This document shows, in pieces, positions 24,546 to 53,000 of a stretch of DNA of 64,000 nucleotides. The position numbers and the translations under genes are program-made. This DNA is from Bacilli bacterium (lineage in GTDB: Bacteria; Bacillota_I; Bacilli_A; ML615J-28; CAG-698): positions 1,689 through 65,688 of the forward strand of contig JBFXJT010000003.1 in the NCBI GenBank assembly GCA_050174575.1. Reading direction: 5' to 3'. Within the stretch, counting starts at the first letter, position 1; each line of letters opens with the position of its first letter. Under the pieces are notes generated by a model. It made no database searches. It was given only the letters and a program-made list of their open reading frames with translations, and was not told the origin of the DNA.

Positions 24546-24645
24546 TCATTTTTTATAAAAATAAAATGTTCTTGTTTATTAAGGGCTGTTATGATAAAAT
24601 TAAACTACAATAATTTGTTATGATGAGAGAAAAGTGGTGATAACA

Positions 24646-35674: not shown

Positions 35675-36096
35675 TGAAAGACCGTTTTAAAATTTTTATC
35701 TTAAGATCCTGGGTAATTGGGATGGTTGTCGTTGTGGTTTATTTCATGATGAGTTTGCAACATATTTTTATTGGACTTATTTTAGGAATTATCAATACCT
35801 TTTTGGTTGATTTATTAAGTTTAACTATCAACAAAGGTAATCAGGCTGCTTTTCCTACAGGATGGAAATTGTTTTTTAAAACCATTTTCAATATTGCTAT
35901 TGCCATCATCATTAGTTTAATTATTCGCTTAATCGATTTGCAACTATTAAAAAACAACCTTATTACTATGCCAATTGAAACATTTCGCTTTATTGCTTAT
36001 TACCAAATTATTTATTATGGATCGTTATTCGTATATAACAAAATAAAAAGATTAATTGAGAGGAACAAAAATGAAACGATTATTAAAAAGCCTTAA
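35674..36096 (+). CDS. Small membrane protein of unknown function
   Basis: 3-4 TM helices. It overlaps neighbouring genes in an operon-like arrangement. Confidence 0.35.
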   Translation: MKDRFKIFILRSWVIGMVVVVVYFMMSLQHIFIGLILGIINTFLVDLLSLTINKGNQAAFPTGWKLFFKTIFNIAIAIIISLIIRLIDLQLLKNNLITMPIETFRFIAYYQIIYYGSLFVYNKIKRLIERNKNETIIKKP

Positions 36097-36766
36097 AACT
36101 AAACCGATGACACTTGTCGTCAGTTTGCCAGAAAACACTTACGAAATGGCAAAAGCTGCTTGGGAAGCAGGCGCAGATGCCATTAAAGTGCACATCAATT
36201 TATTTCACAACGCTAGTTTAATCAAATTTGGAACGATTGAAGAGCAACGACCTGTTTTAGAAAAAATATTGCACGACTCTCCGGTTCCTGTTGGTGTCGT
36301 AGCTGGCGAAAATACAAAAGTTAGTGAAGGGGTCATCGAAGAATTAGTTCGAATGGGATTCGATTTTATATCTTTGTATGGTCATCATATGCCTGTATCG
36401 TTATGCAATCGCCAAGACGTATCAAACTTATTTGCAATTGATTATAGTTATTCAGTTGAAGAAGTAAAAACAATTACTAATTCATTCATTGCAGAAATAT
36501 TGGAGTTATCAATTCTTCCTCATGAAGAATATGGTTCTCGTCTTAATGCCCGAGATTTAAGTCGTTATTTAGCTTTTTCACAAGTATCTAATATTCCAAC
36601 ACTTTTACCAACTCAAAGATTGATTTATCCGAGCGATGTTCAAGCAATTGCTAATTGTGGCGTCAAAGCAATCATGATTGGAGCAATTGTTTTTGGTCAC
36701 GATCTTCATCAAATGGTTGAACAAATAAAGTTATTTAAACAAGCTATAAATGAATTAAAGCAGTAA
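36071..36766 (+). CDS. Hypothetical cytoplasmic protein, possibly a TIM-barrel (alpha/beta) enzyme
   Basis: Alternating beta-alpha pattern with 'AWEAGADAIKVH' and a 'VKAIMIGAIVFG' phosphate-binding-like C-terminal motif. The family is not recognised with confidence. Confidence 0.35.
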   Translation: MKRLLKSLKTKPMTLVVSLPENTYEMAKAAWEAGADAIKVHINLFHNASLIKFGTIEEQRPVLEKILHDSPVPVGVVAGENTKVSEGVIEELVRMGFDFISLYGHHMPVSLCNRQDVSNLFAIDYSYSVEEVKTITNSFIAEILELSILPHEEYGSRLNARDLSRYLAFSQVSNIPTLLPTQRLIYPSDVQAIANCGVKAIMIGAIVFGHDLHQMVEQIKLFKQAINELKQ

Positions 36767-36776
36767 GGAGTAATTT

Positions 36777-37736
36777 ATGTCACTAGCGATTCAGGCCGTT
36801 CCGATATATGATAGTAAAGCGTTTGATATACGTCGCTATATCCATCCTCCAATATATGATGGAAAAATCGATCAAGAAAAACTTCCAATTGCCCCTCCAG
36901 CATGTTTTTTAGGAGCATGGTATCGTAAAGTTTTTTCATCATTTGACAAATGGGTTGGTATTGAAGGGGTGATTGAATTAGGAGAATTTACTCCCGATGA
37001 AGCACGTTTCAATTTAGATGGTAAAGGCCGCTATATGGATGTTCCAAGTATTTATATGGGTGGAAAAAGCGCTTTTGAAAGTGATGCCGGCTTAGGTTTA
37101 GGACCAACATATTTAACTTCTGATTTTTCTTTTGAATTAACAATGGCCAGTCCTAAAATAGCTTATCGTCCTTTTTGGCGTTATATTTATCAAGATGCAA
37201 CTGATATCAACGGTAATGTCAATCGACGTGAAATCAATTCTTGGAATGTTACTGAACCTAGAAGCGTTATTTATAGTTACTTTCCTGGTGATGTTTTAAG
37301 AATGAGTGTTTATAGTCCTATTCCTGATTACTTACAATTACACATCGAAGTATTAAAAACGACGACGATTCCTAAATATGTGCAAATTAGAGAACAATAT
37401 CATTTAGAAAATAATCGTCCCGATGATTTTTTCAGCCCAATCTTTTTATCAAAAGGTCATGGGAAAAATGATGCAGAATTTAAAAGAGTGAATGCTATTG
37501 ATCAATTTGGGAATGAAGGATTTCATGCAAAACCAACCAAAGCTGAAGTTTCAAAAGCTACTTGGCACGAAACATATTTATATCGGATGATTAATAACGA
37601 AGTTAGACGTATTCCATTTTCGAAAGCTAGGCAAACAAGTATGATTTGCCCAAACAATGATGCCGTTTCTGTTATCGACATTGATCCAGAAATTGGCAGC
37701 GAAGCAATAATCATTCATCCGGGGAAAATAAAATAG
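36777..37736 (+). CDS. Unknown-family cytoplasmic protein, 319 aa, paralog A
   Basis: ~45-50% identical to the 44071-45030 product. Shared blocks are 'FLGAWYRKVFSSFD.W.G.EGVI.LGEFTPD..RFNLDGKGRYMD.PSIYMGGKSA', 'AYRPFWRYIY..ATD..GNV.R.EINSWNV' and 'RQTSMICPN.DA'. It has no signal peptide and an AAGGAG RBS. Confidence 0.5.
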   Translation: MSLAIQAVPIYDSKAFDIRRYIHPPIYDGKIDQEKLPIAPPACFLGAWYRKVFSSFDKWVGIEGVIELGEFTPDEARFNLDGKGRYMDVPSIYMGGKSAFESDAGLGLGPTYLTSDFSFELTMASPKIAYRPFWRYIYQDATDINGNVNRREINSWNVTEPRSVIYSYFPGDVLRMSVYSPIPDYLQLHIEVLKTTTIPKYVQIREQYHLENNRPDDFFSPIFLSKGHGKNDAEFKRVNAIDQFGNEGFHAKPTKAEVSKATWHETYLYRMINNEVRRIPFSKARQTSMICPNNDAVSVIDIDPEIGSEAIIIHPGKIK

Positions 37737-37745
37737 GGGGTAAAG

Positions 37746-39449
37746 ATGAATTTTAATGAAACTACTTATATTTGTAAAAACGTATATTCCATTGATGGAA
37801 TATTAAAGTTTGATGGGAAAATCCCCGTTGATATCAATGGGCGTACAGTCACTTATAAAATGTATAGTAATTTCCATGAATTGCTTGATAAAAACATTTT
37901 TGAAGTGAACAATCATGGTCTTTTGTTTTACGTTCATTACGATGAAAATATTAAAGAGGATGGCTATTATTTAAACATTACTACTGAAAATAAAATCATC
38001 ATTAAAGCATCGAATATACGAGGAATCCGTTATGCCTTTAAAATGCTTAACGATTTAGCAAGAAAATCCAATGATGGGTTTTTATTACCCATTGTTTTAA
38101 TCGAAGACGAACCTTCATTCCCTATAAGAGGAATCGTCGAAGGTTATTATGGAGAACCTTGGACGTTAGATGAGCATTTAGATATGGCTGATTTTATGGA
38201 TCAATTTCGTTTAAATGCTTTTATGTACGCGCCAAAAACTGATCAATATCATCGTGAGAAATGGTTTGAATTATATCCGGATGATCTTTTTCAACAATTG
38301 TTAACAATAAAAAACAAGTTAGCAAGCAAGGATATCGATTTTTATTATTGTATCTCACCAGGTCATGCAAAAAATCCAGAAGATGGATTTCAATATGCGA
38401 AGGATGCTGATTTTGACCGTTTATTTATAAAACTTAAACAAGTTATTGATGTTGGTGTCAATCATTTCGGATTATTTTTTGATGATATTGATTATCAATT
38501 AAGTGGAGATAACTTACAACTTTTTAAACGCCCAGGAATTGCCCATGCCCATATTTGCAATAAAGTAATGGACTTTTTAAGAGAGAATGTAATTGACCCA
38601 GTTCTTGTTATGTGTCCAACAGAATATCATCAAATTGGCGCAACAGAATACCGTAATGATTTAAAACAAAATTTAGATGAAGATATTGTTGTTTTCTGGA
38701 CGGGAGACCGCGTTTGTGCAGAAGCTATTACAGAAAATGATGCTAAACAAACAGCAGAAGCTTATGAAAAACCAATTTTTATTTGGGATAATTTCCCTGT
38801 CAGCGATTTTACATACGGCGTGAGAGAATTTATTGCGCCAATTAAAAACAGAGCTGCCAATTTAAGTGATTATGCTTTGGGTTATTTAATTAATCCAAGC
38901 TTGCATTATCATATTTCAAAAATCGGAATGATTACTATGGCTCACTATGCATGGAATTGTCAACACTATGATTATGTGAAATCATATTCCATCGCATTAA
39001 ACAGCGTCAGCCATGAATTTGCAACTTTAGGGGAAGCATACTTCGAATATAATTATCCGAACGTTCTTTCTCATGGGAATTTAGCCTTAGAAAAGCAAAT
39101 GGTAGAAAATCATGATTATTCTGCAATTTTAGCTTATATGGAAAAAGTATCAAAGAGCGCAACGCAACTACTTACCATCAATGAGCCGATTATTGATGAA
39201 CTAAAACCATGGTTATTAAGAGTTATTGATGAAGAAAAAATCATCAAACAAATCATTGATGGAGAACTAAACAAAAAAACATTACTTACTTTCTTGCAAA
39301 ATATCAAATTTTCAGGTGGAAAAATCCTTGATTATTTGATTGCTGACAAAAAATTATTGACCGATGAAGAGTTTACTAATTTGCTTTCTAAACGACGAGG
39401 CGGAGAATGGTATCGTGTGTTTGAATACAAACGCTGGCCAAAGCACTAG
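37746..39449 (+). CDS. GH84-family beta-N-acetylglucosaminidase (O-GlcNAcase/NagJ-like), cytoplasmic
   Basis: 'FPIRGIVEGYYGEPWTLDEHLDMADFMDQFRLNAFMYAPKTDQYHREKW' matches the GH84 catalytic-domain N-terminus, and the catalytic Asp-Asp sits in 'FGLFFDDIDY'. It has no signal peptide. Confidence 0.8.
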   Translation: MNFNETTYICKNVYSIDGILKFDGKIPVDINGRTVTYKMYSNFHELLDKNIFEVNNHGLLFYVHYDENIKEDGYYLNITTENKIIIKASNIRGIRYAFKMLNDLARKSNDGFLLPIVLIEDEPSFPIRGIVEGYYGEPWTLDEHLDMADFMDQFRLNAFMYAPKTDQYHREKWFELYPDDLFQQLLTIKNKLASKDIDFYYCISPGHAKNPEDGFQYAKDADFDRLFIKLKQVIDVGVNHFGLFFDDIDYQLSGDNLQLFKRPGIAHAHICNKVMDFLRENVIDPVLVMCPTEYHQIGATEYRNDLKQNLDEDIVVFWTGDRVCAEAITENDAKQTAEAYEKPIFIWDNFPVSDFTYGVREFIAPIKNRAANLSDYALGYLINPSLHYHISKIGMITMAHYAWNCQHYDYVKSYSIALNSVSHEFATLGEAYFEYNYPNVLSHGNLALEKQMVENHDYSAILAYMEKVSKSATQLLTINEPIIDELKPWLLRVIDEEKIIKQIIDGELNKKTLLTFLQNIKFSGGKILDYLIADKKLLTDEEFTNLLSKRRGGEWYRVFEYKRWPKH

Positions 39450-39461
39450 GAAGGATTAGTG

Positions 39462-40127
39462 ATGATTGAACAATTAAAAAACAAATTGATAGTTTCATGT
39501 CAAGCAAAAGATAATGAACCTTTAAAAGACCCCCAAATTATGGCGAAAATGGCTGCTGCAGCATTACTTGGTGGTGCTGGTGGCATTAGGGCGGCAGGAG
39601 TTAACGATATTAAAGCAATTAAAGCCATGAATGAAACCATTGTTATTGGACTAATTAAAAAAGACTATTCGGATTCTGAAGTATACATTACACCTACTAA
39701 ACAAGAAGTTTTCCAATTGTTGGAAAGTGGTTGTGAGATTATTGCTTTAGATGGTACGAATCGCAATCGGCCCAACAAAGAAACATTATTCAGTTTAATT
39801 TCATTAATTCATGCCAATAACCGTTTAGCTATGGCTGATATTTCCACATTTGAAGAAGCTTTATTAGCCCAACAAGCTGGAGCAGATATGGTTTCCACAA
39901 CGCTTTCTGGTTATACAAGTTATACAAAGAAACGCCAGGGACCCGATATAAAGCTTGTCGGACAATGTGTTTCAAAACTGCAAATTCCTGTGCTTGCGGA
40001 AGGAAGGATTAGAAATCCTCAAGATTTAAAGAAAGTTTTACGAAAAAAACCGTTTGCTGTTGTTATTGGAACAGCAATAACACGTCCAACCGAAATTACT
40101 AAAACTTTCGTAGGGTGTTTTAAATGA
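39462..40127 (+). CDS. nanE: N-acetylmannosamine-6-phosphate 2-epimerase
   Basis: Collinear with E. coli NanE in 'LIVSCQA', 'IIALDGTNRNRP', 'TTLSGYT', 'AEGRIRNPQ' and 'VVIGTAITRP'. Confidence 0.85.
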   Translation: MIEQLKNKLIVSCQAKDNEPLKDPQIMAKMAAAALLGGAGGIRAAGVNDIKAIKAMNETIVIGLIKKDYSDSEVYITPTKQEVFQLLESGCEIIALDGTNRNRPNKETLFSLISLIHANNRLAMADISTFEEALLAQQAGADMVSTTLSGYTSYTKKRQGPDIKLVGQCVSKLQIPVLAEGRIRNPQDLKKVLRKKPFAVVIGTAITRPTEITKTFVGCFK

Positions 40128-41767
40128 ACAGAAAAACGATCAACGAATCTTATAAAGATATTCTAAGCAATTGGAATAATGAATTTTCCCATAATTATCC
40201 GATTACGGAACGATTATTCAAAGAAAAAATTCTTGATTCGCTAGAAATTGTTGCCGATGGTTCATACTCCTTATATGACAAAGAGGAATATATTGGCAGT
40301 GTTATTTTAAAATTTAATCATATTAATGATAAAAAATTGCAAGACTACGCTTATATTTCGTTTATTTTTGTGGCTTCAAAATTTCGAAATCGAGGATACG
40401 GTTCTGTTTTGATAAGTGATGCGCTTAGAATATGTATTGAATATGAAAAAAGCATGTTATATGTAGGTGGTGATAACGATTGCTTGTTTTCCGGTGTTTT
40501 TTTAGATAATAATGAATTTGTTCACCAATTTTTTAAAGAACATCGTTTTAATATTGCTTACAAAAATTATAATTTGATTTGTAAAGAACCACCAAAAACA
40601 ACAAACGACGAATACAAATATACGACGTTAAAGACTGAAAAAGAAAAAAAGGACTTATTAAAGCAAGTTCATAAATTATTTCCTTCAAGATGGCATTATG
40701 ATTTGCAAAGCTGTGAACCAAAAGCTTTTTTTGTTGCGAAAGAAAATGATAATATTGTTGGGGTTGTTCGTTTAAATACGCCTAAATCAAATCACATCGC
40801 CAACAGTGTTAATACTTATCCGTTATACAAAATGCTTGGAGGAATTGGCCCCGTTGCCATCTTCCCCGAAAAAAAGGGTTCGGAATTAGCCAACAACATC
40901 GTCAAACAAGCAGTCAACTATTTGTTCAACTTGGGATGCTCCGAAGTTATTGTCGATTGGACCAATTTTATTGATTACTTTAAAGCTTCGGGATTTTCGG
41001 ATATCTCTAATTCCTATGTTCTCTATGAATTGCGTGTTCAAGAAAAAATCAAAGGGCCAAAAACACATATTTATCAGGTTATCGAAAATGATTTACGACA
41101 TGACATTTTAGAAGGTAAATATAAACATGGAGATATTATTCCTAGTGAAGTGGAATTAGCTTCTACATATAAAGTAACGAGGATGACAGTTAGACAAGCT
41201 ATCAACAACTTGTTAATCGATGGATTTATATATCGTCATAAGGGACGCGGCACGTTTGTAACATATAATAAAAGAAATATTGATTTTGAAGACAAACCTT
41301 ATTTTTCATTTAACAATGATAAGGCAAATAATAATGAATTACGAACGACTGTTTTAATTTTTGAAATCAGGGCAGCAGATGAATTACTCGCTCTGCGATT
41401 ACAACTAAAAACAGGTGATCCGCTTTATTATGTTGAACGGGTTGTTTCCTATGATAATTTACCATTATTGTTTGAAAGATTATATTTACCAGCAAACATG
41501 TATGCCAATTTAAATGAAAAAATATTTGAAAAATCATTTTATCAATATGCGAAAGAGCAGTTGCACTGGAATTTAGTTTCATGCAACATCAATATAGAAG
41601 CAAGAGGTCTAAGTGGACGGGCTGCAGAAGTCTTACAATTATCCCAAGGCGATCCAGCGCTTTATTGCAGTAGTGTAGCTCACTTGGTCAATGGTAGAGC
41701 AATCTTGTATACTAGAACTTTTTTCAATGCGGAACAAGTAAATTTTTCCCATCAATTTTCTTTTTAA
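40124..41767 (+). CDS. Fusion protein: two N-terminal GNAT acetyltransferase-like domains plus a C-terminal GntR/HutC-family regulator (HTH + UTRA)
   Basis: GNAT motif A 'FIFVASKFRNRGYGSVLISDAL' is at ~aa 80-100, and a second GNAT-like region spans ~aa 190-300. The GntR HTH 'SEVELASTYKVTRMTVRQAINNLLIDGFIYRHKGRGTFV' is at ~aa 330-370, and a UTRA-type C-terminal domain follows. Confidence 0.7.
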   Translation: MNRKTINESYKDILSNWNNEFSHNYPITERLFKEKILDSLEIVADGSYSLYDKEEYIGSVILKFNHINDKKLQDYAYISFIFVASKFRNRGYGSVLISDALRICIEYEKSMLYVGGDNDCLFSGVFLDNNEFVHQFFKEHRFNIAYKNYNLICKEPPKTTNDEYKYTTLKTEKEKKDLLKQVHKLFPSRWHYDLQSCEPKAFFVAKENDNIVGVVRLNTPKSNHIANSVNTYPLYKMLGGIGPVAIFPEKKGSELANNIVKQAVNYLFNLGCSEVIVDWTNFIDYFKASGFSDISNSYVLYELRVQEKIKGPKTHIYQVIENDLRHDILEGKYKHGDIIPSEVELASTYKVTRMTVRQAINNLLIDGFIYRHKGRGTFVTYNKRNIDFEDKPYFSFNNDKANNNELRTTVLIFEIRAADELLALRLQLKTGDPLYYVERVVSYDNLPLLFERLYLPANMYANLNEKIFEKSFYQYAKEQLHWNLVSCNINIEARGLSGRAAEVLQLSQGDPALYCSSVAHLVNGRAILYTRTFFNAEQVNFSHQFSF

Positions 41768-41770
41768 TAT

Positions 41771-41795
41771 CAGTGCCATTTTTTGGCACTTTTTA
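41771..41795 (+). terminator. Terminator after the GNAT-GntR gene
   Basis: AGTGCCA-tttttt-GGCACT is followed by TTTTAATTT. Confidence 0.5.
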
Positions 41796-41797
41796 AT

Positions 41798-41809
41798 TTG
41801 TATATACAA
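41798..41809. promoter_or_regulatory. Perfect 12-bp palindrome TTGTATATACAA (GntR-family GT-N-TA-N-AC operator type) in the promoter region of the GHL10 gene
   Basis: Read directly. It lies ~17-28 nt upstream of a TATAAT at 41826-41831. Confidence 0.4.
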
Positions 41810-41854
41810 GTTGGTTATTAAATGTTATAATTAAGAAAAAAAGGAAATGACACA

Positions 41855-44074
41855 ATGAGGAAAATTCTTATGGCTTTTTTATTAACATCACTCGCAGCAA
41901 ACATTTTTGTTAATGCTGAACAAACAACGATTGTCGACGATTATTTAAATGGAAAAGACATCGTTCGTTACGAAAACTACTTAGTTTATTATAGTTTTAA
42001 TTCATCCTTGAAATCTCCTGCAAATCAATGGGGGTATGAAATTGCAGTGAGCCCGGACCATTTTGTAATTGATTGCGATACCAATGCAACCATGGAAGAA
42101 GGAGGTTACATTATTTCTGGTCATGGAACGAAAAAAACAATCCTTTTGGATGTCAATGTTGGCGATCAAGTAAATATCGATTGGGGAACTAAAAAAATTA
42201 TCATTACTAGAGATCCCCTAAAAAGTCCGCAGTTTTTAGCACACCGCTTTAAACAAACGGCAATTGATTATTACAATCAAGCTACAAAATACGGTTATGC
42301 TTTTGATTCTATCCTTGTTAATCAACTGATTGATCTGATTGACAAGGACTGTGATTTAATCGATGAGATTGCTATCAAAAGCGAGCCAACAAGTGATGAT
42401 TTAAATCAAGTAAAATTGTTAGCCGAAAACATCGAGACGCGGGCTTTAACAATCAAATTTCTTACTTCTTATTCTTCAAAAACGGAGATTCGAGCTTTGT
42501 GGCATCGGCCAAATGCAGCAGGGTTAAAAGAGGATAATTTAGACAATTTAAAAGCTTTCGTACAAGAAGTTAAAGATTTAGGGTTTAATACAATTTTTGT
42601 AGAAACATTGTGGAATGGATATGTTAGCTATCGATCAGATATCATCAGCACACACCCACAAGTAGCTGGTTTTACATATGGTGAAGTTTACCAAAACGAT
42701 TATATCGCAGCATTAATTGGCGAAAGCAAAAAACTAGGGATTGATGTTCATGCTTGGTGTCATACCTTCAATGCTGGAAATGTTACTTATAAAGCGGCAT
42801 CAATCAAAGATGAATGGTTACTAGAAAATTACCAAGGCTTAACATTGCACCCTAACACTTACGGTGGGAGTTATTATTTGGATCCATCAAATCCTGAAGT
42901 ATTAACTTACTTAACCAGTGTCTTTTTAGAAATGGTTGAGAAGTATGACTTTGCAGGTATCCAATTAGATTACATTCGTTATTATGATAACAACTATTCA
43001 CAAACGCCCATTAGAGATAGTGGTTACGGATTGCTTCCGGAAAATCGCTTTAAAGAAGCTTATGAATTAACCGGTGATGTCCGTGAACTCATCAAACAGG
43101 AAACAAATTTAGAAAAATGGAACAAATGGCGACAAGACAATGTCACTAACGCCGTCAAAACATTTTCACAAGCTTTACGAAATAAAAATCCCGAAATTGT
43201 CATCTCTGCTGATGTTGTTGCCAATATTACTTATGCAAAAGCAACATACATGCAAGATTGGAAAACATGGGTTGATAAAGGGTATATTGATTTACTTTGC
43301 CCAATGATTTATACAGGAAGTGCCGAAGCAATTAAAGAAGATTCTTTAGCTATTATGAACCAAATAAAAAATTTAGCCTTTTTATCTTCAGGTATTGCAC
43401 CGATTTATTATGGATATTCTGTAGAAATTAACCACGATGAATTTGAAGCAACGAAAAGTGCTGATGGCTTAGCCTTTTTTGCAAGTCAAAATATTGTTGG
43501 GTTACAAGAAGTTTCACAATCAATAAAAACAGGGGTATTTCGATTAGAAGCTACATCCCCACTTCAGAAAACGTCAATTGTTATTGAAAATGGATTGCAA
43601 CATTTAAAAGAATACGTAACTATGGCAATGGTAAATGAACCGCAACAACAAATGTTCCTTGACCATATAAACACGATGAGTGCCATGGATTGCAATAATC
43701 CATCTGATTATCAAAGCCTAATGGAAAAAATGGATTTTGTAAGAACAATATCTCCATATGTTATTTCCAATGACATTAGAGAAATTTTCAACTTGGAATT
43801 GGAACAATTAATTCATGTATTAGACGTCAAGATTAGCCGGGAAATGATTACTTTAGGTTTTTATGACCCCAGTGATGGAAGTCGACCAGACCCTGATTTA
43901 TTTGATTATCCTGTTGATGAACCCGAACCTGAACCAGAACCAGAACCTGAGCCAGAGCCTGAACCAGAACCCACTGACGAAAAAGGATGCTTGAATTTTT
44001 TTACAGCACCTTCAATAATATTCTTCGGATTGATACTTATGTTATTTAGAAAAAAAGAAAGAGGTAATATATGA
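41855..44074 (+). CDS. Secreted glycoside-hydrolase-like protein (GHL10/YngK-YddW-like TIM barrel) with a (Pro-Glu)n linker and a C-terminal membrane anchor
   Basis: Carries a signal peptide. The central region 'GFNTIFVETLWNGYVSYRS...' with 'DVHAWCHTFN' and 'GIQLDYIRY' resembles the DUF187/GHL10 family, though this assignment is unverified. The C-terminus is 'PEPEPEPEPEPEPEPTDEKGCLNFFTAPSIIFFGLILMLFRKKERGNI'. Confidence 0.6.
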   Translation: MRKILMAFLLTSLAANIFVNAEQTTIVDDYLNGKDIVRYENYLVYYSFNSSLKSPANQWGYEIAVSPDHFVIDCDTNATMEEGGYIISGHGTKKTILLDVNVGDQVNIDWGTKKIIITRDPLKSPQFLAHRFKQTAIDYYNQATKYGYAFDSILVNQLIDLIDKDCDLIDEIAIKSEPTSDDLNQVKLLAENIETRALTIKFLTSYSSKTEIRALWHRPNAAGLKEDNLDNLKAFVQEVKDLGFNTIFVETLWNGYVSYRSDIISTHPQVAGFTYGEVYQNDYIAALIGESKKLGIDVHAWCHTFNAGNVTYKAASIKDEWLLENYQGLTLHPNTYGGSYYLDPSNPEVLTYLTSVFLEMVEKYDFAGIQLDYIRYYDNNYSQTPIRDSGYGLLPENRFKEAYELTGDVRELIKQETNLEKWNKWRQDNVTNAVKTFSQALRNKNPEIVISADVVANITYAKATYMQDWKTWVDKGYIDLLCPMIYTGSAEAIKEDSLAIMNQIKNLAFLSSGIAPIYYGYSVEINHDEFEATKSADGLAFFASQNIVGLQEVSQSIKTGVFRLEATSPLQKTSIVIENGLQHLKEYVTMAMVNEPQQQMFLDHINTMSAMDCNNPSDYQSLMEKMDFVRTISPYVISNDIREIFNLELEQLIHVLDVKISREMITLGFYDPSDGSRPDPDLFDYPVDEPEPEPEPEPEPEPEPEPTDEKGCLNFFTAPSIIFFGLILMLFRKKERGNI
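43918..43974 (+). repeat. In-frame hexanucleotide microsatellite (GAR-CCN)x9 encoding the (Glu-Pro)9 linker
   Basis: 'gaacccgaacctgaaccagaaccagaacctgagccagagcctgaaccagaaccc' is read directly. Confidence 0.8.
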
Positions 44075-45030
44075 GTTTAGCAATTAATGTTATTCCAACA
44101 TTGGATAGTCAATTTATAGACAGCCGAAAATTTCAAAACGCAAAAATATTTTATGGAAATATTGAAAACGAGGTAAAACCAATTTTGGCTCCAAAATGTT
44201 TTCTTGGAGCGTGGTATCGCAAAGTTTTTTCATCCTTTGATTATTGGTTAGGGATGGAAGGGGTTATAAAATTAGGTGAATTTACCCCTGATAAGCTTCG
44301 CTTCAACCTTGATGGTAAAGGTCGTTATATGGATAACCCATCAATTTATATGGGAGGGAAAAGCGCCAAAGAAACTGATGCTGGCTTAAACCTCAATTTA
44401 AGTTATCTATCAGATGATACTAAAGACGACTTAGTTCTTTCTTCTCCAAAGCTAGCTTATCGACCATTTTGGCGTTATATTTACAATACTGCGACTGATG
44501 TATCAGGGAATGTTGAACGCCATGAAATTAATTCTTGGAACGTTCATAATCCTAGACATTTAGGAAATTATTATTTTCCCGGCGATGTTATCAAAATGAG
44601 CGTTTATAGTCCGATGAAAGACTACTTACAACTACGTATTGATGTTATTGAACCGACAACAAACCCAAAATATGTGAAAATAAGAAATGGATACAATTTA
44701 GAAAATAATCTTCCCACTTCATTTTTAAGTCCTTTATTTTTTTCTAAAGGACATGGTTATGAAAAAGCCGAATTTAAACGTGTAAATTCCATTGATCAAT
44801 ATGGTAACGAAGGCTTTGTAGCACAAAATACCAATGCCGAAGTATCGGAAGCTGTTTGGCAAGAGGTCTATTTGTACAAAGAAATCGACAAAACAATTTA
44901 CAAAATTCCTTTCTTACAAAGTCGCCAGACATCAATGATTTGCCCAAACACAGATGCTATTACTGTGAAAAATCATCCAGTTGATCCCACTGGAGAATCA
45001 GTTATCATTCATCCAGGAAAAAGGAATTAA
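44071..45030 (+). CDS. Unknown-family cytoplasmic protein, 319 aa, paralog B
   Basis: Paralog of the 36777-37736 product with the same conserved blocks. Its start overlaps the upstream stop as ATGA. Confidence 0.5.
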   Translation: MSLAINVIPTLDSQFIDSRKFQNAKIFYGNIENEVKPILAPKCFLGAWYRKVFSSFDYWLGMEGVIKLGEFTPDKLRFNLDGKGRYMDNPSIYMGGKSAKETDAGLNLNLSYLSDDTKDDLVLSSPKLAYRPFWRYIYNTATDVSGNVERHEINSWNVHNPRHLGNYYFPGDVIKMSVYSPMKDYLQLRIDVIEPTTNPKYVKIRNGYNLENNLPTSFLSPLFFSKGHGYEKAEFKRVNSIDQYGNEGFVAQNTNAEVSEAVWQEVYLYKEIDKTIYKIPFLQSRQTSMICPNTDAITVKNHPVDPTGESVIIHPGKRN

Positions 45031-45042
45031 AAGGCCGAACTT

Positions 45043-46545
45043 ATGAAAAAAATAGTTTATATTCCCCTTGATGAACGACCTTGCAACTATGATTTTCCTA
45101 ACGAGATTTTTCAAAATTCCCAAACAAATATTGTCATTCCCCCAATCAATATTATGGGAGACAAAAAAATGCCGGCTAACCATAATGCTTTAGAAGCTTT
45201 TCTCTTAAAAGAGACAAAGGATGCCGACGGTTTAGTCATTTCTTTAGACACACTAATTTATGGTGGGATTGTTCCTTCTCGTTTACATTATTTAGATGTT
45301 AGCGTATTAAAAGAGCGATTATTATTTATTGAGCAGATTAAAAAACAAACGCCAAAATTACCTATTTTTGCTTTCCAATTAATCATGCGTTGTCCCCAAA
45401 ATAATTCAAGCGATGAAGAACCAGAATATTACAAGCATTCTGGAAGAAGCATTTATTTAAATGGTTATTATCAAAACAAAAAACAATTAGGCATTATTAC
45501 CGAAGAAGAAGAAAAACATTGGAAAACATTGTCAATTGAAGATACCTATTTAAATGATTTTTTACAAAGACGATTTACAAATAAACAAATTAATATTTTT
45601 GCTCTCAATTTGCTTGAGAAAGAGATGATTGACTTTTTGGTTGTTCCTCAAGATGATGCGAGCGAATATGGGTATACAGCGATAGATCAAGTAGATATTA
45701 GAGAAATCATCCGTCAAAAGCAACTGATGTTAAAAGCATATATGTATCCAGGAGCCGATGAAGTCGGATGTATCTTATTGAGTCGTATGATTAACCATTT
45801 AGAAAATAAAAAGCCTGCTTTTTTTGTTAAGTATCCATCACCAACAACACCAATGGTGATTCCTTGTTTAGAGGATCGCTATGTCGATGTAACCATTAAA
45901 TATCATATTGCTTGTACGGGTGGAATTACTGTTCCTTCTTTAGCAGATGCAGACATTGTTTTACTAGCTTTCCTTGGAGCAACTAAAATGATTTCTCATC
46001 CAAACAATGAACCAAGTTTGGATGTTGATGTCATGTGTAACTTTACGGAAATGATGGAGTTTGCGGATTATGCAATCAAAAAGGGATATCCCGTTGCTAT
46101 TGGTGATTTAGTTTACCTTAATGGTGGTTCGCTAGATATCTTACATTTTTTAGAAGCAAAGCAACTAACAATGAAAGTTGCATCGTATGCTGGATGGAAT
46201 ACATCAAGTAATTCTTTAGGAACAGCCATTGCTCAAGCGATTCAGTTTTGGTACCAAGGAAATACTTTGTCACATCAAGCTTTCTTGATTAAACGCTATG
46301 TGGAAGACGTGGGCTATTGTGGAATTGTTCGAGCTGATGTTACAAAAGAACTTGCAAAACATCAAATGGATTATTTTAATGTTAATGAAAAAGATGGTAT
46401 TGCTGCCAAACTCGTCAATCATGGATTGCAAAAATTCATCCATGAACATTTAACAAGTATCAGTCACCAATTTACCGTTACAAAAGTAAACTTACCTTGG
46501 AAGCGGATGTTTGAAGTCGCTTTTGAAGTTCATTTGAAGGATTGA
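45043..46545 (+). CDS. Uncharacterised cytoplasmic protein, paralog B of the ~500 aa DUF4127-like family
   Basis: Carries the N-terminal 'KIVYIPLDERPCNYDFP', 'DTLIYGGIVPSRLH', 'QLIMRCPQ', 'FLVVPQDD', 'YMYPGADE' and 'AGWNTSSNSLGTAIAQA' motifs, all shared with paralog C. Confidence 0.5.
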   Translation: MKKIVYIPLDERPCNYDFPNEIFQNSQTNIVIPPINIMGDKKMPANHNALEAFLLKETKDADGLVISLDTLIYGGIVPSRLHYLDVSVLKERLLFIEQIKKQTPKLPIFAFQLIMRCPQNNSSDEEPEYYKHSGRSIYLNGYYQNKKQLGIITEEEEKHWKTLSIEDTYLNDFLQRRFTNKQINIFALNLLEKEMIDFLVVPQDDASEYGYTAIDQVDIREIIRQKQLMLKAYMYPGADEVGCILLSRMINHLENKKPAFFVKYPSPTTPMVIPCLEDRYVDVTIKYHIACTGGITVPSLADADIVLLAFLGATKMISHPNNEPSLDVDVMCNFTEMMEFADYAIKKGYPVAIGDLVYLNGGSLDILHFLEAKQLTMKVASYAGWNTSSNSLGTAIAQAIQFWYQGNTLSHQAFLIKRYVEDVGYCGIVRADVTKELAKHQMDYFNVNEKDGIAAKLVNHGLQKFIHEHLTSISHQFTVTKVNLPWKRMFEVAFEVHLKD

Positions 46546-46546
46546 T

Positions 46547-48490
46547 ATGAGACTCATAAAAAGTTTATTTAGTTTGATGCTTTTTTGTTGTGTGTTATTT
46601 TTTTGCTTTCATGTAAACACGAATGCTCATTTAATGAGTGTTGTAAAAGTAGAAACAATTAAAAGTGGAACAGTTACAGATGGTGTTTATTATGAAAGTT
46701 TCAAAGGTACTACAACGAATGATGCCCAAACTATTAGTAATCAACGTATTAGCTGGGTAAAAAAAGAAGCAAGCGCTAATGCAAAAATCGTTGCTTGGAG
46801 CAAACTAGGAAAAACAGGTATTGTTGGAGCTAATTTATTAGCATTAGCTCTTGATTTTGAAACGAACAATCCCGGATGGCATGTTTTAGCAGGAATCAAC
46901 GGAGATTATTATGATCCTACAACAAAAACACCAATCAATGCCCTTGTTCAACAAGGAGATGTTGTAAAAGCAACAAACTTTTCACTTTCACGTTATTTTT
47001 CTGTGGGGTTTTTAGATAATAGCCAAAGTTATATGTCTTCGAAAATAAACATATCCGAAAGTAAATATGCCCTAAGTATTTATGATGATACAAACACCCA
47101 AATTATATCGGAAGTACTGATTCAGGGGATAAATACTTTTCCAAGCGCAGGACAAACAAGCATATACTTTAATAGTCCATACCCATATCAGATTGCAAAT
47201 GCTCGTTATTTTCGTATTAACGATTTAGAACATGTAATTAATTACGGATCATATTTGTTTAAAGGAACTGTTTTTGAAGAAGTAGAAGATACTCAAACAG
47301 ACTTAAATGAATTAGTAATTGTGTCGTTGGATGAAGAAGTACAAACTTTATTGGCAAATAATCCCTCTATTCGGATTCAAAAACATTTAAAAGAAGCAAA
47401 CAATGGTTTAGAAAATGTTATTGGTGTTGGCAGTCAGCCATTAAAAGATGGTACTATCCTTGAATTTGGTGAAATCAATGACCAAAATATTGATTTCGCA
47501 AAGCAAAGAGCACCAAGATCAACGATTGGTTTTACTGAAAATGGTGATTTTGTGATGTCAACCATTGATGGCCGGCAAGCACTGATGGCTGGTGCTGATC
47601 TACGTGAAGAAGCGATGGTTATGGAATCACTTGGATGTAAGCAAGCTTTTAATTTAGACGGTGGTGGTTCTACACAACTAATTGTTAGAGAAAATAATCA
47701 ATTAGTAATGTTAAATTCGCCTTCCGAAATATATCGAAGTAATGCTAATGGGTTATTGCTTGTGGAACCAGATGTTTATGTGGATGCTTCCATTACCGAT
47801 TTAAACATTTCTTCTCTTCATTTACAGTATTCTTTAACATCAAGCGAAGAAGTTATCATCAACAATCACACTTTGTATTTGAATAATGTGGCGATTGATT
47901 CAACCAGTGAAAATTTAACTGTCGATTCACTCATTTCATCAGGAATAAATTACTTATCAATCGTTGTGAAATACGAAAAACAAGGAATAATGTATGAACA
48001 TTGTTTATGGAGTGAACGCATCAACCTTGCAAATTATGGTTTTGTAGAAGAAGTTATTAAAGTAAAACCCCATAATTTTCAAATCGAATTTGTGAAAGAT
48101 GACACAATCAACGGTTTTAGCGCTATTGTTAATTTTGATGATCCCGATAAGACACTCACAAAACTTTATGTAGCATATGCTGATAATCAAGAGATTGCCA
48201 TTAAAGATTACCGTGGATATGTTGTCGATTTTTACAATGTTGCTAATCCAAGTTCGTTTACATTTTCCATTATTTATTATTATCGGATAAATACCATAAA
48301 TGCTGTTTTCGAAACTTTTGAAACAACATTCCCCTATACTTATGAGGTAATTGATGATCCGATTATTGAACCAGAACCAGATCCGGAAGAAAAGCCAAAA
48401 GGATGTTTGCAACAAACAACCATCATGCCATTTTCGGCCTTGTTATTAGGAATATTTCTCTTGTGGAAAAAGGGACGCAAAAATGGTTAA
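46547..48490 (+). CDS. Secreted phosphodiester glycosidase family protein (NAGPA/uncovering-enzyme-like domain, DUF2233) with C-terminal beta-rich domains, an acidic Pro linker and a membrane anchor
   Basis: Carries a signal peptide and the hallmark 'FNLDGGGSTQL' motif of the phosphodiester glycosidase domain. The C-terminus is 'IIEPEPDPEEKPKGCLQQTTIMPFSALLLGIFLLWKKGRKNG'. Confidence 0.65.
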   Translation: MRLIKSLFSLMLFCCVLFFCFHVNTNAHLMSVVKVETIKSGTVTDGVYYESFKGTTTNDAQTISNQRISWVKKEASANAKIVAWSKLGKTGIVGANLLALALDFETNNPGWHVLAGINGDYYDPTTKTPINALVQQGDVVKATNFSLSRYFSVGFLDNSQSYMSSKINISESKYALSIYDDTNTQIISEVLIQGINTFPSAGQTSIYFNSPYPYQIANARYFRINDLEHVINYGSYLFKGTVFEEVEDTQTDLNELVIVSLDEEVQTLLANNPSIRIQKHLKEANNGLENVIGVGSQPLKDGTILEFGEINDQNIDFAKQRAPRSTIGFTENGDFVMSTIDGRQALMAGADLREEAMVMESLGCKQAFNLDGGGSTQLIVRENNQLVMLNSPSEIYRSNANGLLLVEPDVYVDASITDLNISSLHLQYSLTSSEEVIINNHTLYLNNVAIDSTSENLTVDSLISSGINYLSIVVKYEKQGIMYEHCLWSERINLANYGFVEEVIKVKPHNFQIEFVKDDTINGFSAIVNFDDPDKTLTKLYVAYADNQEIAIKDYRGYVVDFYNVANPSSFTFSIIYYYRINTINAVFETFETTFPYTYEVIDDPIIEPEPDPEEKPKGCLQQTTIMPFSALLLGIFLLWKKGRKNG

Positions 48491-50012
48491 AATTGTATAT
48501 ATTCCCCTTGATGAACGCCCTTGTAATTATCAGTTTCCTACAAAAATATTTAACCAAAAAGATGTTGAAATAATTACTCCACCCCAATCAATAATGGGAT
48601 ACAAAAAGCAACCGACTGATATAGATCAATTAAGCGATTGGTTAATGACGAACACAAAACAAGCTTATGGATTAGTTGTTGCCCTTGATACGCTGCTTTA
48701 TGGAGGAATTGTTCCTTCTAGATTGCATCAGCTTCCCCTTAAAATCCTTTTAAAAAGATTACAAATTTTAAAAAAACTGAAAAAACAAAATCCTGAACTT
48801 CAAATTTTTGGGTTTCAGTTAATCATGCGTTGTCCTCAATATAATTCAGCCGATGAAGAACCTGAATATTTTAAAAACTATGGAAAAAGCATCCACATGT
48901 TGGGATACTATTCTCACATGAAAGAGCTAGGAATTCTTCCCAAAAAAGATCAGGAAAAACTAAACAATATTTTTGTCCCACAACCATTTTTAGATGATTT
49001 TGTCAATCGAAGAAAAGTGAATCAGCAAATGAATATCGCAGCCTTAAAACTAGTTTCAGAAGGCATTATATCATTTTTCACTTTCCCTCAAGATGACTCA
49101 TCAAAATTTGGTTGGACAGCAAAAGATCAAATTGTTATTAGAAAGTCTATAAAAAAACGTCATTTAATGCATCTTGTTTATATGTATCCTGGAGCGGATG
49201 AAGCGGGGAGTGTCCTTGTTAGTCGCATGGTCTGTCAATTTAAACAAGTAGTTCCAAAAGTATTAATAAGATATCCCGGTCCAAGTTGCGCAAAAATCAT
49301 TCCCTCAATCGAAGACCGTTATTTAGATACTATGGTTAAATATCACGTTTTAGCATGTGGAGGAATTATCGTCGATTCTTTGAAAGAATGTGATGCTGTT
49401 GCTTTTATTAATGCACCGGCAGATTATATGCGTTCATCATTTTCTAGAGAGGCTCCTAAACATGGATTAGAAGTTTTAAGAAACATGGTTGAGGCAATGG
49501 AGTTTTTGGATTATGCCCGTCACCAAAACAAAGTCATAATCATCGGTGATATTACTTATGGAAACGGTAGCGATCTTGAAATCTTCCATTTACTATCACA
49601 AAAACAAATGACATTTGATTTGGCAGGTTTTGGAGGATGGAATACAGCCTCAAATGCGATTGGTCAGGCTATTGCCATGGGATTTTCATTCTTAATAAAC
49701 GGTTGCACAGAAAGCCATTTGAACTTTTTAGTAAGTCGTTATATTGAGGATATTTGTTATTGTGGTTATGTTCGTCAAATCGTTATGAAAAATTTTTTAC
49801 CAAAGCATCCACAACTTGATTATTTTAATGTAATGGAAAAAAATGGACTTGTTGCTCAAGAAGTTGCAAGACAATTAAACTTATTCATCAAAAAGAACAT
49901 GCCTCAATTGTGGGACCATGGAAAAATCATCAAAGTTGAATTACCGTGGAAAAGGATGTACGAAATCGATTTAGAAGCTATTTATCAAGAGGATAATAAA
50001 AAAAGCATGTAA
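48483..50012 (+). CDS. Uncharacterised cytoplasmic protein, paralog C of the ~500 aa DUF4127-like family
   Basis: 'VKIVYIPLDERPCNYQFP' and 'GGWNTASNAIGQAIAMG' are present. It is collinear with paralog B (~45-50% identity), and its start overlaps the upstream stop. Confidence 0.5.
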   Translation: MVKIVYIPLDERPCNYQFPTKIFNQKDVEIITPPQSIMGYKKQPTDIDQLSDWLMTNTKQAYGLVVALDTLLYGGIVPSRLHQLPLKILLKRLQILKKLKKQNPELQIFGFQLIMRCPQYNSADEEPEYFKNYGKSIHMLGYYSHMKELGILPKKDQEKLNNIFVPQPFLDDFVNRRKVNQQMNIAALKLVSEGIISFFTFPQDDSSKFGWTAKDQIVIRKSIKKRHLMHLVYMYPGADEAGSVLVSRMVCQFKQVVPKVLIRYPGPSCAKIIPSIEDRYLDTMVKYHVLACGGIIVDSLKECDAVAFINAPADYMRSSFSREAPKHGLEVLRNMVEAMEFLDYARHQNKVIIIGDITYGNGSDLEIFHLLSQKQMTFDLAGFGGWNTASNAIGQAIAMGFSFLINGCTESHLNFLVSRYIEDICYCGYVRQIVMKNFLPKHPQLDYFNVMEKNGLVAQEVARQLNLFIKKNMPQLWDHGKIIKVELPWKRMYEIDLEAIYQEDNKKSM

Positions 50013-50088: not shown

Positions 50089-53000
50089 ATGTCAAACATT
50101 AAAAAATTTCTATTTTTTCTATGTTTAATCATTGTGGCTTTTGCTGTCACTGCTTGTGGAACCGATGATATCGAGAACCCAAGTTTAGTGATCAATTCCC
50201 CAACGATTACGCATGTTGTAAACGAGGATGTTGATTTATTAGAAAACATCACGGCAACAGATAATGAAACAGTGGCTGATGACATTGTCATTGAAATATC
50301 CGATTTAGGTGGATATGACAAGACTAAAGTCGGCACGTATACAGTAACAATCAAGGCTACTGATAAAGCAGGAAACTCTATCACAGCAGACATTACTGTT
50401 ACAGTTACTGAAGAGCCTGTTTTAGATACTGAAGCACCAACGCTTACAATTGGCAAACCGAGCATTACTCATGAAATTAATGCGACTGTCGATTTATTAG
50501 CTGATGTCAGTGCAACTGACAACATCGATGCTGCTAGCGAAATTATAATTAGCATTTCTAATTATAATGGCTATGACAAGAGCGTCGAAGGGACTTATGA
50601 AATTACAGTAAAAGCTACAGATACTAGTGATAATTTCACTACCGGAACAATTACTGTAATTGTAAAAGAAGATATTTTACCACCAATGGTTACTGGTGCT
50701 GTTACAACAGTTACACAATTGGCTGGCGAAACAGTTGACCTTACTAAAGGGTTAGCCGGTGTTGATAATAAAGATGGCATAAATGTCATTTTTACAGTTA
50801 CCAATTTTAAAGATTACAATAAAGATGTACCAGGAACATACACGGTTGAAATTACTGCTTCCGATTCTTCCGACAACGAAGGGCTTCCGTTTAACCGAAC
50901 AGTTGTTGTAGAAGAAAGTTATGCTCGTGCAGAAATGACATCCTTTGCAGGCGATACTATTCGTTATGAAGCGTTATATAATCCTCAAATAATGAACAGC
51001 AATACCGCAACAGGTTACAATGCAGCATATGATGGTCATTATGTCAATGTTCTTTCTAAAGAATATCTTGAATGGATTATTGAATATGCTCCTGAACGTT
51101 TAGGCGCAGGTGTTGGTTGGAGTGTTATAGCTGTAACTGATGCTGATGAAAAGATTGTCTATGTTCGTCATTGGAATAGTGGAGAAGCTTACCATGATGA
51201 AGCAGGTAATCTAGTTTCTGCAAAATCTGTTAACTGGTCAACAGGAACAATCCGTACTTGGACTGAAGATGTTGGTGGTCAAGTTGTCGGCATGTCAAAT
51301 GCGAAATACAGTTCTGCAGAAATGGGCATGATGATGGCTAATATTAATGAATGGGTTCCAACTGGCGGACACGTCTTTATCTTTATCAATTGGTCAACAA
51401 TCGGTGAAGACGAAGGCGGAAATGTTGTTGGAATTGCCAACTCAGCAACAATGCCACGATCCATGGGTGCAAACTACATTATGTCAAGCGATGAAAATGG
51501 CGATGATGTCATGGATTATGCTATTGGTCGTACATTAAAAATCTTAGATAAACAATTAACTGATGAAACAATTCGTCAAAGTTTTGATGCAGCTAATCCA
51601 TTCCCAATTATTTCGATTCCAAGTGTTAGATATATAACATCAACGGGAATTTGGAAAAACCGCTATACAGAAACTGTTTATCTTGATGAATATAATCAAG
51701 AAAATCCTTTCAATCCTTTAAATGGCGTTACTGCCAATGATGGAAAAGGTAATGACATCACATCAACAGTTTCTTATAAACTATTCCGTTATCAAACAAC
51801 AGAAACTGCTTATGGATTAATGACTTCTCTTCCAATTGATGATCCTCGTTGGGCACAATATTTCGAAGATGCAGAATTATGGAAGAAAGAAGAAAATGAA
51901 GTAACATTAGAACAAGCAATGGTTGATGCTAATAATGATTACTATTTTGTTGTTCAATATCAAGTTACTGCTAACGAATTTACGGATACAGCTTATAAAT
52001 TAATTCAGATTAAAGCTTCAGTTCCAGATTATATTGATTTATATGGAACTACTGATTCGGTATTTTCTGAGGCAATGGGGATTCAACAACGTTTAGACAT
52101 GAATCCAAATCTTGAAGACTTTGGTTCGATGACTGCAACAGAAAAAGGTATTATTTATACAGCTTCCGCATTTAAAGATTTAACTACTTTCCCTGCTTTG
52201 GAAAAAGGTGTTATTGTTGTAGTTGATCCTTTCTATCGCATTCAATTAATCAGAATTGTTAATGGTATTGCTTTTGAAATGGATGCCACTGGCACAGCCA
52301 AAACGACCGATTTAACTTGGACTGCAAGTCAAATGTTTAGTGGGTTAGATACATTGGTTCCTGCTGGCGGGTATGTCATCGTTTATCCAGAAGGATTAGA
52401 TGGTTCCGTTTTAACAAAGGCCTTAAAAGCATACTATGATTATAATTATCAATCAGGTTTATTAACAGAAGCCCTTCCAACAAACGGAAAAGTTTCAATC
52501 GAAATGATCATTAAAGAAGTAAAAGAAGTATCCACATTCGTCGTTAATGATGTTGCTCCACAAATCTCCATCAATAACACTGATACTAATATTTTTGTTG
52601 TGGAAAACAACAAAGCATCGTTAGTATTCTCATCATCTGGTGGTGGCGCTGGATTCCGTTTGGATACTGGAAAAGCTTATTATTATACAAAAGCTGAATA
52701 CGCTGTTTTATCACAAAATACTGATGTTGTTACTTCATTTACAACACTAAGCCCGAACAAAGGTGTTCCTTGGTTCCGCGATGGCGTTATTATCGTTGTT
52801 GATTCAACTGGCAAGTTTGTACAAGCCCGTGTTATGACAACGAGCGCAGCTGCTGAAGTCCGTGTTGACGGAACAGTTGTTTATGGTAATGCTGCCGTTG
52901 TTGCCCTTAGTGAAACTGCGAAAACTGCTGCTGGAGAAGCTAACCTAACTTGGGATTTAGTTCTTCCAAACGCTGCTAACACTGTTGCTCATGGGCCACT

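Follow-up and report, generated by a model that had tools for sequence, protein, structure and literature searches.

C-terminal sorting signals of the tripartite type that include a Cys residue have been described as MYXO-, JDVT-, Synerg- and CGP-CTERM, and these signals are cleaved by CPBP/Rce1-type 'myxosortases' (Haft, bioRxiv 10.1101/2023.06.07.544157). Cleavage is Cys-dependent, as experiments with MrtX and TraA have established (Guo, Haft and Wall, mBio 2025, PMC11980579). Furthermore, housekeeping sorting enzymes are typically encoded away from their substrates (Haft, bioRxiv 10.1101/2023.06.07.544157). Neither Firmicutes nor Mollicutes are mentioned in that myxosortase work, and no earlier description for Mollicutes, Acholeplasma or Firmicutes was found in the open-access literature, an absence that is not proof. 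The present analysis concerns a Cys-containing C-terminal tail carried by two secreted enzymes, one of the glycosyl hydrolase-like 10 (GHL10) family and one of the NAGPA (phosphodiester glycosidase) family. Both are encoded on a Bacilli contig (JBFXJT010000003.1), within the 64-kb stretch of DNA that was analysed as a whole and is termed the window (GC content 34%). The tail probably constitutes a class of C-terminal anchoring signal that is distinct and under selection. On the best reading, its nearest described kind is the MYXO-/JDVT-/Synerg-/CGP-CTERM group, with low-GC Acholeplasmatales-like Bacilli (former Tenericutes) as hosts.

The GHL10 enzyme (739 amino acids; plus strand, 41855–44074; Pfam PF02638, E=3.7e-32) starts with a predicted Sec/signal peptidase I (SPase-I) signal peptide, MRKILMAFLLTSLAANIFVNA (41855–41917), which by inspection under the −3/−1 rule would be cut between FVNA and EQ. 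Its C-terminus comprises an acidic Pro/Glu stalk, D-(EP)9-T-D-E (43916–43981, with (EP)9 at 43919–43972), followed by a juxtamembrane K-G-C-L (43982–43993) whose conserved Cys codon occupies 43988–43990. An 18-residue hydrophobic transmembrane segment, NFFTAPSIIFFGLILMLF (43994–44047), was delimited by hydropathy scan and composition profile, and precedes a basic cytoplasmic tail, RKKERGNI plus stop (44048–44074, residues to 44071). The same tail is present on a 70%-identical ortholog, P0121. The NAGPA enzyme (647 amino acids; plus strand, 46547–48490; Pfam PF09992, E=6e-28, and homologs) likewise has a predicted SPase-I-type signal peptide, MRLIKSLFSLMLFCCVLFFCFHVNTNA (46547–46627), ending by inspection between NTNA and H. 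Its acidic Pro-rich linker EPEPDPEEKP (48368–48397) leads into K-G-C-L (48398–48409; Cys codon 48404–48406), a polar spacer QQTT and the hydrophobic helix IMPFSALLLGIFLLW (together 48410–48466; helix 48422–48466, by hydropathy scan), and a basic cytoplasmic tail, KKGRKNG plus stop (48467–48490, residues to 48487). The two C-termini thus have in common an acidic Pro/Glu linker, K-G-C-L, a helix of 15–18 residues and a KK.R.N tail. The original prediction, which was made from the DNA of the window alone, had quoted both C-termini exactly and had assigned ordinary N-terminal signal peptides to both enzymes, in agreement with the SPase-I-type predictions made here.

The GHL10 stalk is encoded by a period-6 (GAR-CCN) repeat spanning 43919–43971, with 8.8 copies and 82% matches (Tandem Repeats Finder). 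Because third codon positions vary synonymously, this is an imperfect microsatellite. The number of EP repeats differs between GHL10 orthologs, being nine in the window and four in P0121. The linker had been described as a slippage-prone microsatellite: the repeat period and the variation of linker length among orthologs bear this out, but the imperfection of the repeat makes slippage hypermutability weaker than implied. The stalk also gave weak matches to the (EP)n region of TonB and to PARP repeats.

The C-termini of 240 homologs of GHL10 and NAGPA were read, and each family was found to contain three kinds of member: Cys-type proteins, proteins with a plain helix and basic tail without Cys, and proteins with SLH domains or no anchor. 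The Cys-type form is ...[KR](K)-G-C-x(3-6)-helix-[KR]3-4, and across homologs the Cys lies in the polar spacer, 20–23 residues upstream of the basic cluster. The consensus of Cys-anchored tails reads E-E-P-K-K-G-C-[GK]-S-G-helix-[KR]K[KR]K, and the general core is [KR]-x(0-2)-G-C, a polar spacer of 3–6 residues, the helix and [KR]3-4. Across relatives the Cys is the sole constant residue; Gly occupies position −1 in 34/45 tails (~75%), K/R is found at −2 in ~45%, and Lys is common at −2 to −4. Several tails contain two Cys residues (GCGC, CKKC, CGSKC). K-G-C-L had been called invariant, and a KK.R.N tail had been noted on both enzymes. Both motifs proved to be confined to the two proteins of the window and their closest relatives, with [KR]-G-C-[LF] nearly invariant in the window's own clade and only the Cys, mostly as Gly-Cys, kept more widely.

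The position of the Cys is far from random. Among the 115 homologs with a helix and basic tail, which include 37 distinct tail clusters, 46 have a Cys within one 7-residue interval, against 3.2% expected from the Cys frequency of 0.47% in the protein bodies (ectodomains); the binomial value of 1e-37 overstates independence because the sequences are related. Similarly, the Cys is present in 24/26 helix-tailed NAGPA homologs that are distant (≤32% identity), and when NAGPA sequences are aligned, all 27/27 Cys-type members have the tail Cys in a single column. The ten juxtamembrane residues differ in composition between Cys-tails and plain tails, with hydrophobic residues making up 13% vs 47%, K/R 18% vs 7% and Gly 15% vs 6%, respectively; Cys-tails and plain tails are therefore discrete classes. 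Helix length did not differ significantly between them (P=0.16). A lipobox-like string was seen in just 1/65 Cys-tail proteins.

The carriers of the tail fall into at least five kinds of protein that are unrelated to one another: NAGPA, GHL10, a ~1100-residue Ig-like protein, Listeria-Bacteroides-repeat (Flg_new) proteins and a coiled-coil protein. The Ig-like surface protein was recovered from a scan of all open reading frames (ORFs) in the fetched loci, where it carries the tail in L005, L026 and L027. The bodies of NAGPA, GHL10 and the Ig-like protein form three separate BLAST clusters. An exhaustive hidden Markov model (HMM) scan with a 34-position tail profile against 1.84 billion representative proteins gave 17 matches at E ≤ 1e-3, six of them internal-repeat artefacts and one a protein already in the NAGPA set. 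The other single-stretch matches all lie at the extreme C-terminus, mostly of fragmentary metagenomic ORFs, and the upstream parts include Flg_new repeats, an Ala/Lys-rich coiled-coil protein and PT-type linkers.

If a genome-wide system recognises the tail, unrelated anchored proteins of one genome are expected to share a tail type. Correspondingly, tail type is uniform in 10/10 loci that encode at least two short-tail anchored secreted proteins, eight being all-Cys and two all-plain (L219, L220). The loci were de-duplicated, and label permutation on the first 9 loci gave P = 0.005; permutation within multi-carrier loci was uninformative before the plain-type loci joined the set. In six syntenic operons, GHL10 and NAGPA change tail type together. 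The Cys-type loci cover clades at only 25–45% enzyme identity, and in other lineages the homologs end in a plain helix tail, have SLH domains or lack an anchor altogether. Acholeplasma granularum and Haloplasma contractile are, like the genomes of L219 and L220, of the plain type. This spread over unrelated proteins and uniformity within loci favour the view, already put forward in the original prediction, that the tail is a class of C-terminal anchoring signal.

As a class test, the tails were compared with the eight operational criteria that Haft set for C-terminal sorting signals of the tripartite type (bioRxiv 10.1101/2023.06.07.544157, Methods), and six of the eight hold. The tails stand at the extreme C-terminus, ending 7–8 residues past the helix. 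Hydropathy scans identify a strongly hydrophobic central transmembrane segment, and a terminal cluster of 2–5 basic residues is present as RKKER and KKGRK in the window and as KKRK/RKRK in relatives, a Lys-rich composition that is as expected because the GC content is 34%. An N-terminal signal was recognised on 55/65 Cys-tail proteins (by a heuristic, not by SignalP), and most exceptions are truncated gene calls. Carrier pairs are alike in the tail alone, across the three BLAST families and the Flg_new-repeat and coiled-coil proteins, and homologs elsewhere lack the signal or use another anchor. As to the occurrence of several carriers per genome, two lie in the 64-kb window and two or three, at most three, per 20-kb locus in relatives.

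Among known signals, MYXO-CTERM (TIGR03901; MrtX/MrtC/MrtP, CPBP, PF02517) resembles the tail in having a motif with an invariant Cys, often as Gly-Cys and sometimes with two Cys residues, a helix and a basic cluster. MYXO-CTERM is likewise found on many unrelated surface proteins per genome, and its sorting enzyme is not encoded beside the substrates. In contrast, the tails miss the model's cutoff of 20 bits: the window tails gave no match, and 2/43 relatives matched at E ~0.01 with at most about 10–15 bits. A Polyangiales tail of MYXO-CTERM appearance (L074), intended as positive control, scored only 9.9 bits to TIGR03901 and so calibrates that model poorly. Window-type tails are also Lys-rich rather than Arg-rich, and their Cys is flanked by a Lys-rich box and a polar spacer of 3–6 residues. 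The hosts are low-GC Acholeplasmatales-like Bacilli and not Myxococcota, which makes a step at the outer membrane or through a type II secretion system (T2SS) inapplicable. None of MrtX, MrtC and MrtP is encoded within the window.

JDVT-CTERM (NF033191, MrtJ) is also a Cys-containing tripartite tail and provided the best curated score, 17.7 bits over the full model length for the Gly-rich tail of the relative L025. Unlike the JDVT-CTERM system, which has one target with the protease next door, the loci described here encode several targets and no adjoining CPBP gene. Synerg-CTERM (TIGR04564, MrtS) and CGP-CTERM (TIGR04288, MrtA) share a Gly/Ser-rich run up to an invariant Cys, a helix and basic residues, with Thr- or Pro-rich linkers upstream. 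Their motif abuts the helix, whereas here a 3–6-residue polar spacer follows the Cys; the best HMM match was E=1.7 for Synerg-CTERM, with none for CGP-CTERM, and these signals are limited to Synergistales and Thermococcales, respectively. More distantly, LPXTG/sortase A, PGF-CTERM/archaeosortase A and GlyGly-CTERM/rhombosortase combine a signature, a helix and a basic tail in systems that remove the helix and re-anchor the protein covalently, and LPXTG signals also have a spacer ahead of the helix. Their signatures are different and contain no substrate-motif Cys, their enzymes are not encoded in the window, and their linkage is to peptidoglycan or an amide-linked lipid as opposed to the thiol modification presumed here.

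Membrane anchoring of the two enzymes is a prediction that follows from their sequence, and the positive-inside rule would place the N-terminus outside and the C-terminus inside the cell. The combined explanation, slightly favoured overall, is a lineage-specific, Cys-containing tripartite anchoring signal whose Cys becomes lipidated and whose helix is removed. Both enzymes would be exported by Sec and lose their N-terminal signal peptide, and the C-terminal module would then hold them on the outer face of the cell membrane. In this module, the acidic Pro/Glu sequence would form an extended stalk, joined through the polar, Lys/Gly-rich juxtamembrane box with its one Cys to a helix of ~17 residues and a cytoplasmic Lys/Arg cluster. 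Most plausibly, the Cys thiol, positioned at the outer membrane face, would be lipid-modified in the outer leaflet, and the helix and basic tail would be cut off by an unlinked, housekeeping intramembrane protease, for which the CPBP/Rce1-type 'myxosortase' is the precedent. Each enzyme would thereby remain on a C-terminal lipid and a stiff stalk, beside the ABC (ATP-binding cassette) importer of its operon for uptake of the product. Taken alone, the proposal that the tail is processed in the manner of MYXO-CTERM is an analogy and is held only tentatively. A broader proposal, which is speculative and rather unlikely, is that wall-less/monoderm Acholeplasmatales-like Bacilli possess their own Cys-dependent pathway of C-terminal lipid anchoring, in which Sec-exported type-I membrane proteins would become C-terminally lipid-tethered surface enzymes by the action of a thiol lipid transferase together with an intramembrane protease encoded elsewhere. 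The enzymes of such a pathway might lie outside the CPBP family.

Several observations weigh against a processed sorting signal. The signature of the tail is short and includes at most two residues that are nearly invariant; the three invariant signature residues of Haft's scheme hold within the window's clade and not for the broad set, and helix-internal conservation is weak beyond that clade. Many orthologs have a plain helix without Cys, and the Cys is therefore dispensable for anchoring as such. When compared with the NCBIfam (June 2026) and Pfam models, the window tails matched none, even at E ≤ 10, and across 43 tails no curated CTERM or sorting-signal model reached its cutoff. The sub-threshold matches were to Loki-CTERM, Heimdall-CTERM, LPXTG and NPXTG, the last two through the helix and basic part alone, and the best JDVT-CTERM score also lies below its cutoff of 27 bits. 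The four known Cys-type systems belong to diderm bacteria (three of them tied to type II secretion) or archaea, never to monoderm or wall-less Bacilli. Only two carriers could be shown for the source genome, of which the window covers 64 kb, and because the concordant loci have shared ancestry, the number of independent events is below ten. Furthermore, no sortase, CPBP, rhomboid or exosortase gene was found in the window or consistently near Cys-tail genes elsewhere. A PF02517 gene within 10 kb of a Cys-tail gene was found among the Acholeplasma-type loci in L096 only, and its Rce1-like product was rejected as a myxosortase: it is a generic CPBP protein that falls well short of every myxosortase cutoff, with 55.7 bits to MroQ (cutoff 270) and 26 bits to MrtJ (cutoff 75).

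The main rival, which is doubtful though the strongest of the alternatives, is an unprocessed type-I transmembrane anchor, in which the helix is kept and the Cys has another role. The Cys could, for instance, form an intermolecular disulfide that dimerises the enzymes, bind a metal or cofactor, or carry a lipid (such as an Lgt-like thioether) on an uncleaved tail. A helix and basic tail suffice for anchoring, and many orthologs have just those. The failure to find a processing enzyme nearby or to match a curated sorting model is also in keeping with an unprocessed anchor, as is the residue pattern around the Cys, where Gly is favoured at −1 and small residues at +1 to +3, a pattern that resembles the C-terminal half of a lipobox. 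However, a structural Cys would not be expected to come and go jointly in unrelated proteins of one genome, nor to be accompanied by a distinct polar, Lys/Gly-rich spacer. A disulfide role is further disfavoured by the habitat, many of the samples being labelled as gut or digester metagenomes, which, going by the record titles, are reducing environments where extracellular disulfides are unlikely. An intramolecular disulfide in NAGPA was considered separately and is unlikely: no ectodomain Cys column is common to the Cys-type members (at most 13/27), and two Cys-tail members have no other Cys in the mature protein.

The two remaining alternatives are effectively excluded. That a 3′ cassette was duplicated locally or passed by gene conversion between neighbouring genes might be suggested by the location of both genes in one operon, 2.5 kb apart, and by the presence of K-G-C-L and KK.R.N in both, but it is highly improbable. 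The tail-coding DNAs align poorly with each other, and the resemblance of each is to the orthologous tail in the syntenic locus L001. Many genomes also have this tail type on unrelated proteins. The original prediction had likewise preferred a sorting class to a duplication, and the two tail-coding DNAs are indeed not copies of each other. Its phrase 'shared cassette' is misleading, since the likeness of either tail is to that of its ortholog and not to the other tail. A sortase-type cell-wall signal (LPXTG-like) that links the protein to peptidoglycan is the least probable of all, for although the layout of motif, helix and basic tail is the same and a few tails weakly match LPXTG/NPXTG models through the helix and basic part (13.5–13.7 bits vs a cutoff of 15.9 for TIGR01167), there is no LPXTG-like motif, no sortase is encoded in the window or the loci, and the relatives carry the labels Tenericutes, Acholeplasmataceae or Izemoplasmatales, orders reported in PMC10868615 to be peptidoglycan-deficient.

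A housekeeping enzyme is not expected beside its substrates, so the lack of a linked enzyme does not discriminate between the hypotheses. The original prediction had noted that the window contains no sortase-, exosortase- or rhombosortase-like gene; this is correct, and no CPBP-like gene was found there either. Regular-expression searches for CPBP (EExxxR...FxxxH...HxxxN) and sortase (TLxTC) motifs in 2289 ORFs found none in the Acholeplasma-type loci then included. The multi-pass membrane proteins of the window are YccF, TMEM164/YwaF, DUF624 (two copies), Yip1 and BacA. A recurrent membrane ORF of ~230 residues upstream of Cys-tail NAGPA genes was identified as DUF624/YesL and was rejected as a partner because genes in the homologous position are also present in the plain-type loci L219 and L220. 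The TMEM164/YwaF-family multi-pass membrane protein is encoded at 29131–29943 (PF14808, E=4e-20), and the tail-bearing genes do not adjoin it. Its eukaryotic namesake, TMEM164, is a lipid acyltransferase.

Two further gene neighbourhoods were observed in relatives. In three divergent genomes (L089 4401–12007, L096 4357–11980 and L097 3–4346), the Cys-tail NAGPA gene is the last gene, on the same strand, of a T2SS/type-IV-pilus-like operon that comprises small ORFs, T2SSF (PF00482), T2SSE (PF00437) and two N_methyl prepilins. Because the known diderm Cys-type and GlyGly-type systems depend on type II secretion, this linkage may be meaningful; alternatively, it may be plain synteny within one clade. 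A gene for a PF04018 (VCA0040-like/DUF368) membrane protein adjoins Cys-tail genes at L089 13173–13952, L092 9041–9925 and L097 4487–5260, in two gene arrangements. The PF04018 family is linked to polyprenyl-phosphate translocation.

The genes for GHL10 and NAGPA belong to a conserved operon (36056–50012) that is syntenic in L001, L094, L219, L220 and L221. Its first part encodes, in order, a 236-residue ORF, an unknown 319-residue protein, a GH84 NAGidase, NanE and a GNAT-GntR/UTRA fusion regulator. GHL10, a second 319-residue paralog, DUF4127, NAGPA and another DUF4127 follow, and then a giant lipoprotein and the ABC importer. The operon looks like a utilisation locus for a GlcNAc (N-acetylglucosamine)-phosphodiester-linked glycan. 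The 319-residue paralogs lie at 36777–37736 and 44071–45030; the 3′ end of the GHL10 gene overlaps the ATG of the second one at 44071, and this second paralog has no Pfam or NCBIfam match. The nearest orthologs of the enzymes come from metagenome-assembled genomes (MAGs) labelled Bacilli, Tenericutes (ADurb.BinA124), Acholeplasmataceae and Izemoplasmatales. The giant lipoprotein (50089–55473; 1794 amino acids, lipobox ...AVTAC) contains three tandem repeats of ~230 residues in its C-terminal half (LTLE(T/S)QHVTYTTVDEWMVKRN...). Its counterparts in the close relatives L002–L004 were called at 1045–1289 amino acids, and some of these calls appear truncated or unresolved.

A second anchor type was seen in Cys-type genomes, at 61048–62538 of the window, L005 841–3630 and L026 1–1047. 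These genes encode NHL/TPR or LTD-domain secreted proteins in which the helix is followed by a long acidic cytoplasmic tail without Cys (...KKAVDNEVKEEKDE, ...KKLKINKKEEEEGGVND), and a gene for a Yip1-domain membrane protein is always located downstream. Elsewhere in the window, a P-type ATPase (24634–28191; 1185 amino acids) has a C-terminal extension of ~330 residues, in which a [DG]GYW.[LI]N[DG]..T-like motif recurs about five times before an extra transmembrane helix at the end. Two ORFs at 31682–33229, of 231 residues (with a lipoprotein signal) and 278 residues, are adjacent with 15 bases between them and resemble the two halves of a single sugar-binding lipoprotein; a frameshift or stop in a pseudogene could account for the split, as could an error of assembly.

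If the Cys is unprocessed, the tail would be merely a conserved juxtamembrane feature of ordinary anchors. Its sporadic distribution in Cys-type and plain-type forms offers a handle for phylogenetic profiling of processing enzymes, and the tail is a candidate surface-display tag for mollicute-like chassis organisms. MAGs of Acholeplasmatales, RF39 and the Izemoplasma-like kind are frequent in metagenomes from guts and digesters, and a new HMM would better annotate their surface proteomes. Cys-containing C-terminal sorting signals have so far been described only in diderms (Myxococcota, Synergistales and scattered JDVT hosts) and Thermococcales. If the proposed processing is true, a member in low-GC, probably wall-less Bacilli would carry the principle to cells without an outer membrane or peptidoglycan, in which membrane tethering is the only means of keeping degradative enzymes at the surface. 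A dedicated lipid-anchoring pathway, if one exists, would be a bacterial counterpart of glycosylphosphatidylinositol (GPI) or archaeosortase anchoring in a lineage without a cell wall or outer membrane.

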